Source: a virus
Taxonomy: Duplodnaviria > Heunggongvirae > Uroviricota > Caudoviricetes
Reading direction: 5' to 3' (one strand)
Length of the DNA: 19,848 nucleotides
Virus record (IMG/VR): IMGVR_UViG_2529293069_000013
A model generated the notes under the pieces. It was given only the letters and a program-made list of their open reading frames with translations, did no database searches and had not been told where the DNA came from. Positions 6,993-11,717 of this stretch are shown here, piece after piece (positions within the stretch are counted from its first letter, which is position 1; each line of letters starts with the position of its first letter). The position numbers and the translations under genes are program-made.

Positions 6993-7019
6993 AAAAAGCG
7001 ACCACTAAAGTCGCTTTTT
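6993..7019. terminator. Bidirectional intrinsic terminator between the convergent RHH (+) and PerC-like (-) genes
   Basis: AAAAAGCGAC-cactaaa-GTCGCTTTTT: 6-10 bp stem flanked by an A-run on one side and a T-run on the other. Confidence 0.6.
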
Positions 7020-7055
7020 CTTATGGTAACAGGCAATAACTCTCTCAGATATTTT

Positions 7056-7370
7056 TTAGCATTTTTTTGACCGCGCGTTTCCGGACGTATTCTGTTCTCC
7101 TGTCCCTTTATATCGTCGGAATACCCGCCGCTCTTCAAATCCCATTCCCAACTCAGAATGTAGTCTGTTGACCGCTTGTTTTATTTCGGTCAGGTTCACC
7201 GGTGAAACCGGAGTCCGGCGCGCCTTACGCAAACACTCTGCTCGTTTCTGTGCCGCCACTTTTCTTTTCTGGTCATCACTTAGCTGTACCATCACTTTTG
7301 CCCATCGTTCAGCTGCTCTCCGGTACAGTCCTTTTTTCTCCAGACATTCTGCCACGTGATCATGTAGCAT
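7056..7370 (-). CDS. PerC-family (Pch-like) transcriptional activator, 104 aa
   Basis: The N-terminus (LEKKGLYRRAAERWAKVM) fits my recollection of the conserved PerC/Pch N-terminal motif, and 104 aa is the Pch length; strong RBS GGAGGT; located in the moron position between lysis genes and cos. Confidence 0.5.
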   Translation of the reverse strand: MLHDHVAECLEKKGLYRRAAERWAKVMVQLSDDQKRKVAAQKRAECLRKARRTPVSPVNLTEIKQAVNRLHSELGMGFEERRVFRRYKGTGEQNTSGNARSKKC

Positions 7371-7394
7371 AAGTGACCTCCGATTATCTACAGA

Positions 7395-7560
7395 CTGCCA
7401 TCCTGAATTTACCTTCCTTTAATGAAATAACAATAAAAAATAAATCACAGAAAAACAACAAAACAACACACAAAAAAACTAAATAATAAACCCAAATAAT
7501 CACCTTATTTTATTATTTTTTGAGAGAGCTATTACTGAACAAAAAACGCTGACTATATAC
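7395..7560. repeat. AT-rich, A/CA-rich low-complexity intergenic tract upstream of the PerC-like gene
   Basis: Runs such as aataaaaaataaatcacagaaaaacaacaaaacaacacacaaaaaaactaaataataaa; no ORF; typical of horizontally acquired regulatory DNA. Confidence 0.5.
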
Positions 7561-7834
7561 TCAAAACCAAACAACTATTCTGCCAATCAGGTATAATGGC
7601 AACACAAGGAATTACCGTGTTTTTGCCTTCTCTGCCCATACAATACGGACATATACTTCATACTCTATTGTAATATTTCCATCCATGCGAACAACTTCAT
7701 TTATCTGTAAATAATATTCAAAATATTTATCACAGAAATCGTTTTTGGCCATGAACTGAGCACACTATAAAGTCCGGAACTGACTCTTTGTTAAATTACC
7801 TTAACGTTACCAGTAACACCTTCATAACAAAACA

Positions 7835-8302
7835 TCACGGTATACACTGGGTACGGATATATTCCTGTGCTCCTTCCAGTTGCTTCTGCATTGCCATCAG
7901 CCGTTCTCTGAGGATGAAATAATCCCGTTCAGCGGCTTCTGCCAGTCGGGGACCGGTTGCATTATCCACGCCGGAGGTGATGGGGGCTTTACGCAAGGAG
8001 CCTGGACAGTTGGCGTTGATGCGCAGGCGCTTACGACCAGCGGCAACATCAGCACGCAGAGTTTCATTTTCAGCTCTCGCATCGGCTAATTCCCTCGAGT
8101 ATCTGGCATCAAGTGCAGCGACATCACGCTGGCGTACCTGCATATCAGTAATTGTCACGTTCGCCAGCTTCAGCTCACTGGCTTTTTTATCGCGTTGCGC
8201 TTTGTAGGTAATGGCGTTATCGCGGTAATGATTCAGCCCCAGACTAAGCACACCACAGGCTACCAGCAGGACAATAATCACCACACACAGAACACGGTTC
8301 AT
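7835..8302 (-). CDS. Rz: Rz i-spanin (inner-membrane spanin subunit)
   Basis: 155 aa; [56 protein letters not shown] resembles lambda Rz. Confidence 0.85.
7897..8082 (-). CDS. Rz1: Rz1 o-spanin lipoprotein, embedded in the +1 frame of Rz
   Basis: [20 protein letters not shown] (lipobox) ...[27 protein letters not shown] resembles lambda Rz1; the gene is nested within Rz. Confidence 0.8.
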
Positions 8303-8309
8303 ATCCCCC

Positions 8310-8441
8310 TCACCCCACCAGCCATGACAAAGTTAAGACGCGCCAGGCAGTGGAAAAGCAAATAGCAACCAGCATTAGTGAAAATGAAATGCCGACGATT
8401 ACACAGAGGATCTTCGCCAGCGTTATGAGCTTGTCTGACAT
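8310..8441 (-). CDS. Small hydrophobic membrane protein, 43 aa, not in the ORF track (below 60 aa), immediately upstream of Rz
   Basis: ATG 8441..8439 with RBS AAGAGGA 6 nt upstream; hand translation [43 protein letters not shown]; stop TGA 8312..8310 abuts the Rz RBS. Confidence 0.4.
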
Positions 8442-8453
8442 GCTTAATCCTCT

Positions 8454-8636
8454 TCACGATTTCAACGCAATGACCAGTTTTGCCAGCCCATACAGCATCG
8501 GAGACACAGCAATACCGACCGCCACCCACTTAATAGCAAAAGCCAGCGCTCTGCTGACGTCATCAGTTACAGGCGCTTTCAGTTCAAGGCCGTTTTTCAT
8601 AGTCAATCTCAACAGAATTCGTTTATACTTTCCCAT
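8454..8636 (-). CDS. Small tail-anchored membrane protein, 60 aa, between the endolysin and Rz
   Basis: ATG 8636 with GGGAG RBS; MGKYKRILLRLTMKNGLELKAPVTDDVSRALAFAIKWVAVGIAVSPMLYGLAKLVIALKS, a basic N-terminus and hydrophobic C-terminus; the 86-aa track ORF's upstream extension overlaps a hairpin. Confidence 0.35.
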   Translation of the reverse strand: MGKYKRILLRLTMKNGLELKAPVTDDVSRALAFAIKWVAVGIAVSPMLYGLAKLVIALKS

Positions 8637-8670
8637 GTTCTCCCTTGCCTTACTCAAGGTCAGAAACACA

Positions 8671-8701
8671 AAACCCCGTTTGCGGCCAACAAACGGGGTT
8701 T
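8671..8701. terminator. Hairpin AAACCCCGTTTG-cggccaa-CAAACGGGGTTT with flanking A and T tracts (bidirectional terminator-like) between the endolysin and the small ORFs
   Basis: 12-bp perfect stem; the minus-strand RNA would end ...GGGGUUUUGUGUUUCU; the plus strand is followed by TTTTACTTTTATT. Confidence 0.45.
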
Positions 8702-8791
8702 TACTTTTATTCACTTAGTTTTTGCCAGTTCGCAGGATTTCGTGTTATCCGCCAGTGTGAGCAAACCGCATTTTTCAGCAAAATATTCTGC

Positions 8792-9325
8792 TTATCTGTC
8801 AATTCCCCAGCACGCCAGCGCGCTCTCCTGGTCACGCCGTGAAACCTGACCGTAGCAGTTGTTTGAGCGAATACGGCAGTCTCTGCCACCGTCCTTAATC
8901 CACCAGCGAATCGCCTCACACGCTCCCCTGCGATCACCTGCATTAATTCGTCTGTAAAACGTCGACGGGAAACACTTACCGGGACCAATGTTGTACGGAC
9001 AGAATGACGCGATCCCCGCTTTCTGGGGTTCGGTCAGCGGTACTTTAATATTGCGCTCCACCCACTCCAGCGCCTTATCACGTTCAATGGCGTTAACCTG
9101 GTCGCATTTTTCCTTCGACAACTTCATGCCCGGAACGACAGGTTTACCATCCACCAGGATGGCACCGCGGCAGATGGTCCAGATACCCGCACCATCACGG
9201 TATGCCGTGGTGTGGTTACCTTCTTTTTCGTCAAGAAACTGGTCGAGGATTTCAGGCGCAGACGCCCCTGCACCAATCAGCGCCAGAACGGCAGCCGACA
9301 GGCCGTATCTGATTTTTGCGTTCAT
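8792..9325 (-). CDS. R: SAR endolysin (T4-type lysozyme, GH24), phage 21 R-like
   Basis: 177 aa; N-terminal signal-anchor-release helix (YGLSAAVLALIGAGASA); E-x8-D-x5-T catalytic triad (EGNHTTAYRDGAGIWT); closely matches my recollection of the P21 / Stx-phage R lysozymes. Confidence 0.9.
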   Translation of the reverse strand: MNAKIRYGLSAAVLALIGAGASAPEILDQFLDEKEGNHTTAYRDGAGIWTICRGAILVDGKPVVPGMKLSKEKCDQVNAIERDKALEWVERNIKVPLTEPQKAGIASFCPYNIGPGKCFPSTFYRRINAGDRRGACEAIRWWIKDGGRDCRIRSNNCYGQVSRRDQESALACWGIDR

Positions 9326-9375
9326 GGATATTTATCAGGGTTTATCGATTTCAAATCCCTGGATATGTTAAGTCT

Positions 9376-9720
9376 TCAGGCCAGCGGTGGAGTCTTCAGA
9401 GAACCCGTAATTATTCCCGGTAGTTTTCCTCTGTAGGTTATCAACACATCCTGCGCCTCTAAAATTACGGGACGCTTTTCCGGTAACGGACCATCCCCTT
9501 CACATAACCCGGCAGCAACATCCATGAAAAACTGCTTCGCCTGCTTTTTCGCCTCAGCTTCGTAAAACTCCAGCGTGGCACCTTCAGTACGGTCAAGACT
9601 AATCGCCACATCTGGCAACAACAGTGACGGATACCCACCAATTTCCAGTGCCACAGTAACAGTAATCTTATCCGGGTAATTATTTATCCCTTTAACACCC
9701 AGTTCGTATTTTTTCTTCAT
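9376..9720 (-). CDS. Conserved prophage protein of unknown function (YdfR-like position), 114 aa, inserted between holin and endolysin
   Basis: ATG with GGGAG RBS, start 5 nt from the holin stop; the same holin / small ORF / lysozyme arrangement occurs in the E. coli Qin prophage (essQ-ydfR-rrrQ). No recognisable catalytic motif. Confidence 0.6.
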   Translation of the reverse strand: MKKKYELGVKGINNYPDKITVTVALEIGGYPSLLLPDVAISLDRTEGATLEFYEAEAKKQAKQFFMDVAAGLCEGDGPLPEKRPVILEAQDVLITYRGKLPGIITGSLKTPPLA

Positions 9721-9724
9721 CGCT

Positions 9725-9931
9725 TTACTCCCCCCGCGCCGCCTTACGACGGTCCTCTCTGATTTTGAAATACAGGTTAGTCAGATACGTCAGCAGGCCA
9801 AACAGCAGACTCCCCAGCACACCGATTGCCACCCACTGGGACGGAGAGACTTTGTCCAGCAGCTGCAGTAACCAGTATCCCGTCCCCACCGCTGACGTGG
9901 TGTATGACACACCTGTTGTGATTTTTTCCAT
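9725..9931 (-). CDS. S: Class II holin (pinholin), phage 21 S-like
   Basis: 68 aa; [44 protein letters not shown] is near-identical to S21; GGAG RBS; no in-frame upstream Met for a longer antiholin form. Confidence 0.85.
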
Positions 9932-10188
9932 CTGATGTATGTCTCCGTCACCGCCGACAGAAAATGAAAGTAAAGGAAAACAAAAAGCCGCCAGTGTCGC
10001 CCACTGACGGCCAACGCCGGGAGCCGTGATTATGGCATTCAGGCTCTGCTAAAAATGCCAGATAACATTCCGGCTCCCCCCCCTGATTCAGGTTATAAAT
10101 GACACAATATCTTGACAACACCCATCACTGTCTGTCAGAAAATGTACTGCCAGATATAAGTATCATGTGAAACCCAACTATCCTTCTT

Positions 10189-10232
10189 AGCCAGTACTTC
10201 TCCGACGAAAGTCAGTACTGGCTGTTTTTTTA
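10189..10232 (+). terminator. Plus-strand intrinsic terminator (10-bp stem AGCCAGTACT/AGTACTGGCT followed by T8) directly after the NanS-p stop, antisense to the late operon
   Basis: Stem 10189..10198 / 10213..10222 followed by gttttttttatt; the minus-strand version lacks a U-tract, so it is oriented for a plus-strand transcript. Confidence 0.5.
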
Positions 10233-11717
10233 TTATGCTGCCGGTGCATTTATCTCCAGCATCAGACTTTCTATCTCAACGCCATACGCTGCATTTTTTG
10301 TAACATCCGTCAGCGTCAGCGCATTCAGTCCCAGTGTCAGACTGTCTTTTATAACCTGGAATGCCGGGCCAGCCACTCCATTCAGTTTCGGAGTAACCAT
10401 GGCACTGCCGGCGGTGAACACCAGCTCCAGCGTCTGCCAGTCGTTACCGTAATCGCCGAACTCCCCCAGCTTCGTGTTTCCGGCTTTCCTGTGATGCATC
10501 AGATTCACCCTGCCGTCAGTGGTCTGAGTGAAGTACGACATCAGGAACGGATTACCGGTACCCGTCATCGCCACACCATCAGGAACGGGAGCATCCGTAT
10601 ACAGATAAATCCCCAGCCCGAACTGATTGTTGGTCAGTGCACCTGACAGGCGGAACTTACAGGTCAGTCTGCCGCCCTGTGTCAGCAGGGTAATTGCGTC
10701 ATCCACCGGATGCGTCAGGGACCAGGTTTTATTGCTCTGCTTGGTGATCTTAAATACACCATCTGACAACTGAATTCCGCCATCCTTAATGCTCCAGCCC
10801 TGCGCAGCAGCCTCTCCGGCTGCCGGCAGCAGGGAGATTGTGCGAACGGACGTATCTGCAGACGGACCCGATGGCGTGTTGCCGCCGGGCGAGGGTTTGA
10901 TTTCCGGTGCCTTACCACTGATGAAGGCTGAGGTGCGCCCGGCTGCGTTCAGAATAGCGGTTGCCAGACGATCCGGAATAATGCTCCTGCGCGCCCATGA
11001 ACTGAAATGTGTCGGGCGGTTTGATGATACCTGGTTTCCATTCGTTCTCGATGCCGCACCGTAATATCCTGATGCCGGAATATCCGGATCTTCTGCCGGC
11101 GCGTTAGTGGCGGTATTGACGCCGTTACCGTCTGTCATGAAGGGCACAAAATAAACGCCCTCACTCTCCCTGTTTTTATACCCGCCGTACACGGTGTCGT
11201 ACTGGGTAGCGTATGTATTTTTCCAGTAATACGTCGTGTCACCACAAATCCACGGCACATCTGCAGCGCTGCCACCATGGCACTGCGCGTTAAACACGGA
11301 GAGGTCAGCCCTCGGATGATTCAGCGTACTCATATCCTGCACATCATGCAGACAGTGGTCAGCCGGAATAATATCGTTATATCTGCAGGCAGCCCCGCCC
11401 GGCGTCACTGTACTGCGGCGCGCCAGCTGTTTAATGCGCGGATCCGGAGCATCGTATGAATCCGGCAGCGGAAGCCCTTCACCGTAAGCCATGGCATTGG
11501 ACTGCCCGGCCAGTACGATGACGTAGTACCAATCCGGCTCAGATGAAGGGCCGACCTGTGGCTCTCCTTCAATAGCCACCGCCTGCATCAGTGTGTACGG
11601 CGTAATGGCAACCGGTCCGCCGTATGGCTGCCAGCCCTCTTTCAGTTTGTGTGTCAGCTTTTCCGCAAGGTCTGACGGCGACGCCGCCCTGACAACATCA
11701 TAATGTTTAATCGACAT
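10233..11717 (-). CDS. NanS-p-like sialate O-acetylesterase (N-terminal DUF1737-like region, SASA/SGNH esterase domain, C-terminal domain of unknown function), 494 aa
   Basis: YYVIVLAGQSNAMAYGEGLPLPD carries the GQSN esterase block; the N-terminus MSIKHYDVVRAASPSDLAEKL matches what I recall of the DUF1737 start of prophage NanS-p proteins; occupies the position between the tRNAs and holin where Stx phages carry stx/nanS-p. Confidence 0.65.
   Translation of the reverse strand: MSIKHYDVVRAASPSDLAEKLTHKLKEGWQPYGGPVAITPYTLMQAVAIEGEPQVGPSSEPDWYYVIVLAGQSNAMAYGEGLPLPDSYDAPDPRIKQLARRSTVTPGGAACRYNDIIPADHCLHDVQDMSTLNHPRADLSVFNAQCHGGSAADVPWICGDTTYYWKNTYATQYDTVYGGYKNRESEGVYFVPFMTDGNGVNTATNAPAEDPDIPASGYYGAASRTNGNQVSSNRPTHFSSWARRSIIPDRLATAILNAAGRTSAFISGKAPEIKPSPGGNTPSGPSADTSVRTISLLPAAGEAAAQGWSIKDGGIQLSDGVFKITKQSNKTWSLTHPVDDAITLLTQGGRLTCKFRLSGALTNNQFGLGIYLYTDAPVPDGVAMTGTGNPFLMSYFTQTTDGRVNLMHHRKAGNTKLGEFGDYGNDWQTLELVFTAGSAMVTPKLNGVAGPAFQVIKDSLTLGLNALTLTDVTKNAAYGVEIESLMLEINAPAA

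Follow-up and report, generated by a model that had tools for sequence, protein, structure and literature searches.

Two very small membrane-protein genes in a mosaic cargo slot between the endolysin and spanin genes of an Escherichia coli O157 prophage

In lambda and phage 21, the endolysin gene R and the inner-membrane spanin (i-spanin) gene Rz abut. What, then, occupies the 489 nucleotides (nt) that lie between these two genes in the late lysis operon of an Escherichia coli O157 prophage, and does it take part in lysis? We addressed this question for the interval at 8303..8791 (minus strand) of a stretch from IMG/VR virus record IMGVR_UViG_2529293069_000013 (Duplodnaviria; Heunggongvirae; Uroviricota; Caudoviricetes), which is 19,848 nt long, is called the window here, and provides all coordinates unless a locus is named. 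We found that the R-Rz interval is a recurrent, little-noticed mosaic cargo slot of Shiga-toxin (Stx) and related phages, and that the two open reading frames (ORFs) it carries here, ORF60 and ORF43 (60 and 43 amino acids [aa]), are real, conserved genes for very small membrane proteins. As to what both proteins do, our best guess is that they may act at the inner membrane to tune lysis without being essential for it.

The first-pass annotation of the window had described an insert of about 490 bp between the endolysin gene and Rz, and this description is borne out. In the K-12 prophages DLP12 and Qin the junction is empty and the R and Rz genes overlap by 4 nt, so the 489-nt interval is an insertion relative to the lambda-type layout. 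Its upstream flank is endolysin R, a signal-anchor-release (SAR)-type lysozyme gene (8792..9325, minus strand; Pfam Phage_lysozyme, 1.5e-24), and its downstream flank is Rz (7835..8302, minus strand; Pfam Phage_lysis, 2e-46). The insert is neither missing nor generally disrupted in close relatives: it is found at a coverage of at least 80% in 990 of 5426 complete E. coli genomes (about a fifth), its ORFs are intact in most relatives, and many O157:H7 genomes have the 489-nt version at 100% identity. The first 154 nt of the interval match hundreds of Stx phages.

Comparing the R-to-Rz intervals extracted from 83 related loci having both genes (L numbers below), we obtained 43 unique versions of 297-1531 nt. 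They are assembled from ORF60, ORF43, a 28-aa peptide (MSAELIRAMAFAIRIVAIAVLVWAIRWW), peptides of 31-33 aa, and an antirepressor gene (ant), in varying order and number, with one to four mini membrane-protein genes per interval and, in some, an antirepressor or an insert the size of an insertion sequence (IS). The order in L003, for example, is a 31-aa ORF, ORF43, the ORF60 core, the 28-aa ORF and Rz. Counted from the R stop codon, homology falls into a shared post-R segment (nt 1-86), a block of hairpin, leader and ORF60 (nt 81-339), and ORF43 (nt 351-482). The hairpin, leader and ORF60 travel as a unit, which stands downstream of ant in L026. In ant-carrying Stx phages and in Sakai prophage Sp11 the order is R, hairpin, ant, ORF43 homologue and Rz, and the ant modules have a different, weaker terminator-like hairpin at the position equivalent to that of the ORF60 hairpin. 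The interval of another Sakai prophage, Sp4, is only 335 nt long and holds a 37-aa annotated ORF (ECs_1094), so the prophages of one strain hold different versions of the slot.

The shared post-R segment of about 86 nt (8706..8791, minus strand) is kept whatever cargo comes next, and homology to the ant-carrying phages stops at nt 86-94. Within it, all E. coli variants conserve GGCGGATAACACGAAATCC (8753..8731, minus strand) downstream of R, and the GGCGGATAACAC element also follows the genes of three unrelated Salmonella endolysins. GGCGGATAACACGAAATCC is preceded by a hypervariable patch (8770..8754), which in many variants is a perfect palindrome (CGTTGGCCAACG, CGTGGCCACG, TGGCGCCA); a fold comparison of the variants found no consistent RNA fold of the GGCGGATAACAC element or the post-R segment. 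Two further observations concern the slot as a whole. In Sp4 (L116, NC_002695.2 1184613-1184947) the layout pchA-Rz-R-S is kept on an inverted segment that adjoins IS629. In one IMG/VR phage (L110:2083-3066), an inserted 327-aa ORF separates Rz from a gene of the ORF60 family (57 aa, ...RWW), so the junction directly before Rz accepts larger cargo too.

Both ORFs had been reported as unannotated. Their coordinates and ribosome-binding sites are confirmed, but in an O157:H7 record with the identical sequence PGAP does call both, each as a "hypothetical protein". ORF60 (8454..8636, minus strand; WP_001303555.1) is preceded by the Shine-Dalgarno sequence GGGAGAA at 8644-8638. The ratio of nonsynonymous to synonymous divergence (dN/dS) is 0.09-0.19 at dS 0.6-0.96 in pairs of E. 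coli and Salmonella genes (Nei-Gojobori), and among 37 distinct interval versions of about 490 nt the variable columns of ORF60 are distributed over the three codon positions as 3/1/13. The protein is a single-pass membrane protein with a basic N-terminus: its best 19-residue Kyte-Doolittle window scores 1.90, the transmembrane (TM) segment covers approximately residues 30-58, and the N-terminal flank holds eight K/R residues. An AlphaFold2 model built on the family alignment shows helices at residues 3-14 and 19-59 with a modest pLDDT of 70.5. Because a basic N-terminal region is followed by a C-terminal TM segment, ORF60 looks tail-anchored, with its N-terminus inside the cell.

ORF60 belongs to the family phrog_1115/4493/3246 (phrog_1115, E = 6.6e-42, residues 1-60), and these PHROG families are labelled as of unknown function. 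An exhaustive profile search among 1.84 billion proteins returned only 24 cluster representatives; all relatives fell within this very small enterobacterial family, and nothing connected it with a known holin or toxin. The distant relatives show that peptides ending in "...RWW" are short ORF60 paralogues with a common MKNGLExDAP...AFAI(K/R) followed by a TM segment. The family is restricted to Escherichia and Salmonella prophages, with no copies found in species-representative genomes, and ORF60 occurs in 14 phage records, all of them inducible phages of other than the Stx1a/2a kind. In Salmonella, the ORF60 genes (L086:2465-2503, L097-L099) start with GTG and are preceded by an upstream ORF of eight codons (ATGTGTAGGGAGGTGT(A/G)TTCCCTGTGA), whose stop overlaps the GTG (GTGA), suggesting that the two are translationally coupled; in E. 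coli, a deletion seems to have fused the upstream ATG to the gene. Other frames in the region were rejected. An 86-aa, GTG-extended version of ORF60 (8714..8454) running through the hairpin is broken in most variants by a 1-nt indel before the hairpin, and a 33-aa alternative-frame ORF (8563..8462) and a 76-aa ORF (8529..8299) were taken as shadows of ORF60 and ORF43, which they track, being disrupted in some variants.

ORF43 (8310..8441, minus strand; WP_001280929.1), with the Shine-Dalgarno sequence AAGAGGA at 8454-8448, is likewise a single-pass membrane protein. It matches phrog_4906 over residues 1-43 (E = 7.3e-24; PHROG label, unknown function), its best 19-residue window scores 2.86, and its single TM segment lies at residues 11-29. 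The 43-aa length is kept down to about 60-65% identity. Codons 2-26, for the N-terminus and membrane helix, have dN/dS of 0.1-0.3, and the last 17 codons form two or three mosaic alleles with relaxed ratios. As the first-pass annotation had noticed, the gene ends on the ribosome-binding site of Rz: its TGA (8312-8310) lies inside the Rz Shine-Dalgarno sequence GAGGGGGA (8311-8304), the overlap (TGAGGGGGAT-ATG; 8304..8312, minus strand) leaves a gap of 7 nt to Rz, and the junction is identical in ant-carrying phages. In all contexts examined, relatives of ORF43 lie between R and Rz; among these contexts are ant-carrying Stx phages, most of which have the gene, and Sakai Sp11, whose homologue ECs_5730 was annotated only on re-annotation. 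Homologues are present in 276 phage records, overwhelmingly of Stx-converting phages, and are often left unannotated in GenBank.

That the lysis cassette contains genes for small hydrophobic membrane proteins, as had been proposed from the sequence, thus stands up: hydropathy gives one TM segment in each protein, dN/dS is well below 1, and both length and TM segment are conserved. Both ORFs fit the description of a small membrane protein with a TM domain encoded in a lysis cassette. No match for either was found in Pfam (E <= 1), NCBIfam or PADLOC; by the same Pfam threshold neither is a member of a holin family, and Pfam gave no match of either to the Hok, Ldr, TisB, Ibs, ShoB, DinQ or Zor toxin families. 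A survey of Stx-phage lysis cassettes does not mention the ORFs (PMC8136144), and the supplements of a Ribo-seq study of small genes in Sakai contain no match to the peptides or accessions (PMC5597208). A phrase search of the literature for genes between R and Rz found no published description. Accessory membrane-protein genes are an already known kind of gene, and within that kind ORF60 and ORF43 appear to be newly described families, outside the described holin, toxin and defence families.

Directly upstream of ORF60 stands a hairpin with a U-rich tail, UUUUGUGUUUCU (8659..8702, minus strand). The first-pass annotation had placed a strong 12-bp hairpin with U-tracts here; the hairpin is present at that position, but its stem (8670-8702) has 13 bp, counting four A-U pairs, around a 7-nt loop. 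On the lysis strand it has a folding energy of -21.6 kcal/mol (z = -3.35) and on the plus strand -18.9 kcal/mol (z = -3.66), and in neither case did any of 200 shuffles fold as well. A G+C-rich core (CCCCGUUUG/CAAACGGGG) is followed directly by UUUUGUGUUUCU, and the U-rich tail is conserved. A T/U-rich tract follows the hairpin on either strand, the upstream A-tract being the U-tract of the plus strand, and the hairpin may serve both strands. Among 19 distinct versions, pairing is kept in 96.4% of cells, two pairs have changed on both sides (UA/AU/UG and UA/CG), and 14 cells hold U.G or G.U pairs, which can form in the RNA of the lysis strand alone. Covariation scores 0.171, compared with 0.078 in shuffles (0 of 500 as high) and at most 0.073 in slid controls. 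By its stem-loop and U-tract form and its maintained structure, 8670-8702 is thus a candidate rho-independent terminator. Wherever an ORF60-family gene occurs, a homologous CCCCG...CGGGG hairpin stands before it, even behind the upstream operon's own terminator; the hairpin is part of the ORF60 module and travels along. An Rfam scan of 7000-10200 at E <= 1 gave only a sub-threshold rimP-leader match at 8638-8711 (23.8 bits against a gathering score of 47, E = 0.82).

Within ORF60, two more signals are superimposed on the coding sequence. Between E. coli and Salmonella, dS is about 0.10 in codons 3-18 and 1.25 in codons 19-60 (Fisher p = 0.009 and 0.0009 for two pairs). This region contains an internal Shine-Dalgarno sequence (8610-8607) and the in-frame ATG of Met13 (8600-8598), which together (8598..8610, minus strand) are kept across the unique cores. 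The internal Shine-Dalgarno sequence is GAGA here, a weaker form, and GAGG or GGAGG in relatives, 7-8 nt before the ATG; GAGG/GGAGG is kept in the unique cores except in variants of the window type and in L110, which has an extra codon. Since the signal and the ATG are kept although the encoded residues differ (LRLT versus VEAN), a conserved second start is suggested, with a predicted isoform of 48 aa, and Met13 is the start chosen by many gene callers. ORF60 thus has two conserved in-frame starts, each with a Shine-Dalgarno sequence, and resembles the holins S107/S105 of lambda and S71/S68 of phage 21, in which the longer product likewise carries extra N-terminal positive charge. It differs from these dual-start holins in that its starts lie 12 codons apart rather than 2-3, that it has one TM domain and no holin-family match, and that the use of both starts is a prediction.

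The same codons contain a candidate antisense sigma-70 promoter (8600..8629, plus strand; codons 3-13), with a -35 element TAGTCA (8600-8605), an 18-nt spacer and a -10 element TATACT (8624-8629). The -10 element is TATACT or TATAAT in 22 of 23 unique cores, and the -35 element scores 4-5 of 6 in 22 of the 23 and 3 of 6 in L092. The wobble base of the Tyr codon, which gives A-11, is T in 23/23 cores (TAT in 22, TGT in L100), and the flanking codons vary in amino acid (K/N/Q before, K/N/T/R after) while the bases for T-12 and T-7 are kept. A sense-strand promoter based on TATAAA in codons 4-5 was considered and rejected, as its -35 is not conserved (1-4 of 6) and T is never found at -7. From the promoter, the hairpin and the plus-strand U-tract we predict an antisense RNA of about 75 nt (8636..8711, plus strand; -24.5 kcal/mol), which would fold into a small 5' hairpin and the terminator stem, would span the AUG and Shine-Dalgarno sequence of ORF60, and probably adds to the silencing of this gene. 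In layout it would correspond to a type I antitoxin or to the OOP RNA of lambda, an experimentally established, short cis-antisense RNA that ends at a hairpin with a U-tract and targets the 3' end of cII. Like OOP, the predicted RNA would start inside or beside a coding region and end at a hairpin and U-tract; unlike OOP, it would target the 5' end (Shine-Dalgarno sequence and AUG) of a late membrane-protein gene.

What surrounds ORF60 varies, except on its downstream side. Relatives of ORF60 usually lie 10-11 nt upstream of Rz, and the holins beside the family are of S21, lambda and HP1 type, with endolysins that include T4-type lysozyme, GH19, and a 138-aa endolysin candidate without a Pfam hit. 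One identical 63-aa protein of the family (P0034) is present in three such different Salmonella cassettes. Because the holins and endolysins vary and Rz follows, the constant neighbour of ORF60 is the i-spanin gene and not S or R. In the window, ORF60, ORF43 and Rz are co-oriented with gaps of 7-12 nt. A consensus scan found no sigma-70-like promoter on the coding (minus) strand of the interval, a type of scan that weak or non-sigma-70 promoters could escape.

The late operon thus has a cargo slot between R and Rz, which here holds genes for two tiny, single-pass inner-membrane proteins. ORF60 is a self-contained mobile module made up of a terminator-like hairpin, a short leader with a strong Shine-Dalgarno sequence, and an ORF with conserved in-frame starts at Met1 and Met13, and ORF43 is wedged between this module and Rz, with its stop codon in the Rz ribosome-binding site. 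From the missing coding-strand promoter and the upstream hairpin we infer that expression would be late only and Q-antiterminated: both genes would be transcribed solely by terminator-resistant, Q-modified RNA polymerase coming from PR' in late lytic growth, along with S, R and Rz/Rz1. While the phage is a prophage, ORF60 would be silenced by the terminator, with the antisense RNA, running from codons 3-13 to the shared hairpin, as a probable additional lock. The proteins would insert into the inner membrane and there, most likely, modulate the final stage of lysis by way of membrane energisation (the pinholin and the release of the SAR endolysin) or of the i-spanin. We regard the chances of this proposal, that late-operon, terminator-gated small inner-membrane proteins act as non-essential lysis modulators, as evenly balanced. 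A bolder version strikes us as improbable. In it, ORF60 would be a late membrane "toxin" double-locked by terminator and antisense RNA, with effector and inhibitor isoforms, forming a portable lysis-timing device akin to a type I toxin-antitoxin system that sits upstream of the spanins with any holin or endolysin, ORF43 would be a second, spanin-linked modulator, and both would influence lysis and toxin release of Stx phages.

Extra genes of such a kind are known in other lysis cassettes. In phage P2, lysA lies between the endolysin gene K and the spanin genes lysB/lysC and shifts the timing of lysis; its product has four TM domains and about 140 aa. Like ORF60 and ORF43, P2 lysA and P1 lydB, lydC and lydD are extra, non-essential membrane-protein genes co-transcribed among holin, endolysin and spanin genes (for the holin-like proteins of P1, see PMC9025707). 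The mini-genes described here differ from them in having a single TM domain and 28-60 aa, in forming a shuffled array, one member of which has a terminator leader, and in lacking any sequence relationship to them (no Pfam hits).

Several observations weigh against the proposed role in lysis or against the antisense lock. Some members of the ORF60 family lie away from any lysis cassette, behind tail-fibre or SASA-DUF6645 genes or beside DUF1353 at the ends of prophages, and this argues against a role confined to lysis. The occurrence of one and the same ORF60 protein alongside unrelated holins and endolysins makes a specific partnership as antiholin or releasin unlikely, and no co-variation was found between the tail alleles of ORF43 and the TM domain of Rz. 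ORF43 is frameshifted in a minority of loci (without a TM helix in L055 and L056; with the helix kept and a new tail in about eight), and ORF60 has lost its first ATG in L080, so both genes are dispensable. As for the lock, codons and the internal Shine-Dalgarno sequence share bases with the elements of the antisense promoter, whose conservation is not fully separable from those constraints, and the U.G and G.U cells of the hairpin favour its use on the sense strand. No R-Rz interval contains any of the 63 published Hfq-bound small RNA candidates whose position could be determined (Hfq-CRAC Table S2, PMC4104026); the Hfq-CRAC peaks near the Sp4 and Sp11 lysis genes lie elsewhere, some at the esterase gene (at its end or upstream of it) and some upstream of the holin (PMC4104026). 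In two of the contexts outside lysis cassettes (L092:2305-3067 and L100:2501-3025), the ORF60-family genes follow the SASA-DUF6645 tail protein gene and its terminators, once as a tandem pair of paralogues of 64 and 55 aa, with a DUF1353 gene 4 nt further on at the prophage end; this makes a second recurrent setting of the family.

Among the rivals to lysis modulation, the one with most weight, which we still hold to be unlikely, is that the genes are moron-type cargo with a function outside lysis, such as superinfection exclusion, a block of DNA injection by phages that compete or re-adsorb, or modulation of a membrane sensor or transporter of the host, and that the R/Rz junction merely tolerates inserts. 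By definition, a moron has its own promoter and is expressed autonomously in the lysogen. Like the lambdoid morons (bor and lom of lambda, and those of HK97/HK022), the slot is variably present among homologous phages, lies at a module junction of the late operon and is associated with a terminator. The mosaic make-up of the interval, with its one to four mini-genes, antirepressors and IS-sized insert, the empty junction of the K-12 prophages, and the dispensability of ORF60 and ORF43 in some lineages would all agree with this, as would the classic moron positions, flanked by terminators, that members of the ORF60 family take up behind tail-fibre genes or at the ends of prophages. Exclusion genes at late-operon boundaries are also known from Pseudomonas phages (bioRxiv 10.1101/2024.03.05.583538). 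However, the usual moron order is promoter, gene and terminator, whereas here no coding-strand promoter was found and the terminator directly precedes ORF60 in all contexts rather than following it. ORF43 was never seen outside the R-Rz interval in the contexts examined and its stop overlaps the Rz Shine-Dalgarno sequence, and PADLOC gave no defence-family match. The suggestion of the first-pass annotation that the insert might be an independently expressed moron is not supported: no coding-strand promoter was found, the covarying hairpin stands directly upstream of ORF60, and the genes are packed with Rz at 7-12 nt.

A type I toxin-antitoxin pair of ORF60 and its antisense RNA, with its main role in stabilising the prophage or in abortive infection and not in programmed lysis, comes next in weight and seems to us quite improbable. 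ORF60 has the size and hydrophobicity of such toxins (48-60 aa, a single TM segment, a basic N-terminus), the antisense -35 and -10 are conserved in its 5' coding region exactly where synonymous change is suppressed, the U-tracts on two strands would allow the hairpin to end an RNA of about 75 nt complementary to the Shine-Dalgarno sequence and AUG, and the module moves as a unit. A hok/sok relative is moreover present in the Stx2 prophage Sp5, where hokW-sokW encodes a small inner-membrane peptide under antisense control, with growth arrest about 40 min earlier and phage release doubled (PMC8621323). HokW is of the Hok family, has its own promoter, is produced after induction about 1 h before R, and aids lysis and phage release (PMC8621323). 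For the proposed modulation of lysis, too, hokW-sokW is the nearest precedent established by experiment in a phage of this type. ORF60 is likewise a small hydrophobic inner-membrane peptide of an O157 lambdoid prophage; its cis-antisense RNA, however, is only predicted, it has no similarity to Hok, no promoter of its own was found, and it lies inside the lysis operon. Against a toxin-antitoxin pair it also counts that the toxin mRNA would have to pass its own terminator, that the gene is embedded in an operon at 10-12 nt from its neighbours, that there was no Pfam toxin match at E <= 1 and no Rfam antitoxin family at the hairpin and antisense region, that the U.G pairs favour the sense-strand hairpin, that none of the placed Hfq-bound small RNA candidates lies at the interval, and that ORF43 has no comparable antisense features. 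Last in weight, a recombination scar whose reading frames are accidental or in decay, with the hairpin simply as terminator of the upstream transcript, would be in keeping with very short ORFs, a family limited to Escherichia and Salmonella prophages and missing from species-representative genomes, some frameshifted copies and a mosaic interval. Purifying selection strongly disfavours this explanation, which we consider hardly credible: dN/dS is far below 1 at high dS, ORF length, starts and Shine-Dalgarno sequences are conserved across genera, identical proteins are kept in different cassettes, each protein sequence is found on about 1000 or more contigs, and the hairpin is co-inherited with ORF60 even where another terminator adjoins upstream.

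The remainder of the lysis cassette provides the setting for these genes. On the minus strand, the order is S21-type holin, YdfR/DUF1327, R, the 489-nt interval, Rz/Rz1 and a PerC/Pch-family regulator. The holin gene S (9931..9725, minus strand) matches Phage_holin_2_1 (8.8e-33, Pfam). The third codon upstream of its ATG is ATA (I-H-Q-M-E-K; 9929-9940, minus strand), where L084, L102 and L105 have ATG (M-Y-Q-M-E-K, with a 71-aa/68-aa dual start), so the holin can be made only as the 68-aa form, without a longer antiholin-type product; the upstream start has been lost here. The YdfR/DUF1327 gene (9720..9376, minus strand; 114 aa), between holin and endolysin, is a second cargo slot of the cassette and is missing from some relatives, such as PhiR12_3 and L002. 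Just upstream of the holin gene, at 9986-10012 (minus strand), stands a terminator-like hairpin of 11 pairs followed by TTTTTGTTTTC; with the hairpin at 8670-8702, S-ydfR-R is thus bracketed on both sides by terminator-like hairpins. Farther upstream, the ORF for a SASA-type esterase (10233-11717, minus strand) has at most 494 aa, compared with 616 aa (1851 nt) in the O157:H7 record whose R-Rz interval is identical, and may be truncated or a different allele. On the other side, Rz1 (8082..7897, minus strand; from the ORF list) is embedded in Rz, and the PerC/Pch-family transcriptional regulator gene (7056..7370, minus strand) begins 465 nt downstream of Rz, a position that matches those of pchA and pchB in Sakai prophages Sp4 and Sp11. 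Between this gene and a 46-aa ORF downstream of Rz (7612..7752, minus strand) lies a very A/T-rich, low-complexity stretch with runs of A, CA and AAT (about 7380-7560).

The canonical S-R-Rz/Rz1 picture of lysis comes from lambda, phage 21 and the cryptic prophages of K-12, and conserved mini membrane-protein genes, often unannotated, are present at the R/Rz junction in about a fifth of complete E. coli genomes and in hundreds of Stx phage records. The timing of lysis sets phage burst size and, in Stx phages, also the timing and amount of Shiga toxin release. If ORF60 and ORF43 tune lysis or the state of the membrane, they would be unrecognised parts of the lysis programme in medically important phages. 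If the lock by antisense RNA and terminator is real, it would be a compact design in which one terminator is common to a late gene and to its own antisense RNA. If the function of these proteins lies outside lysis, they would still represent a well-delimited family of small membrane proteins, and the R/Rz junction a hot spot of mosaic exchange.

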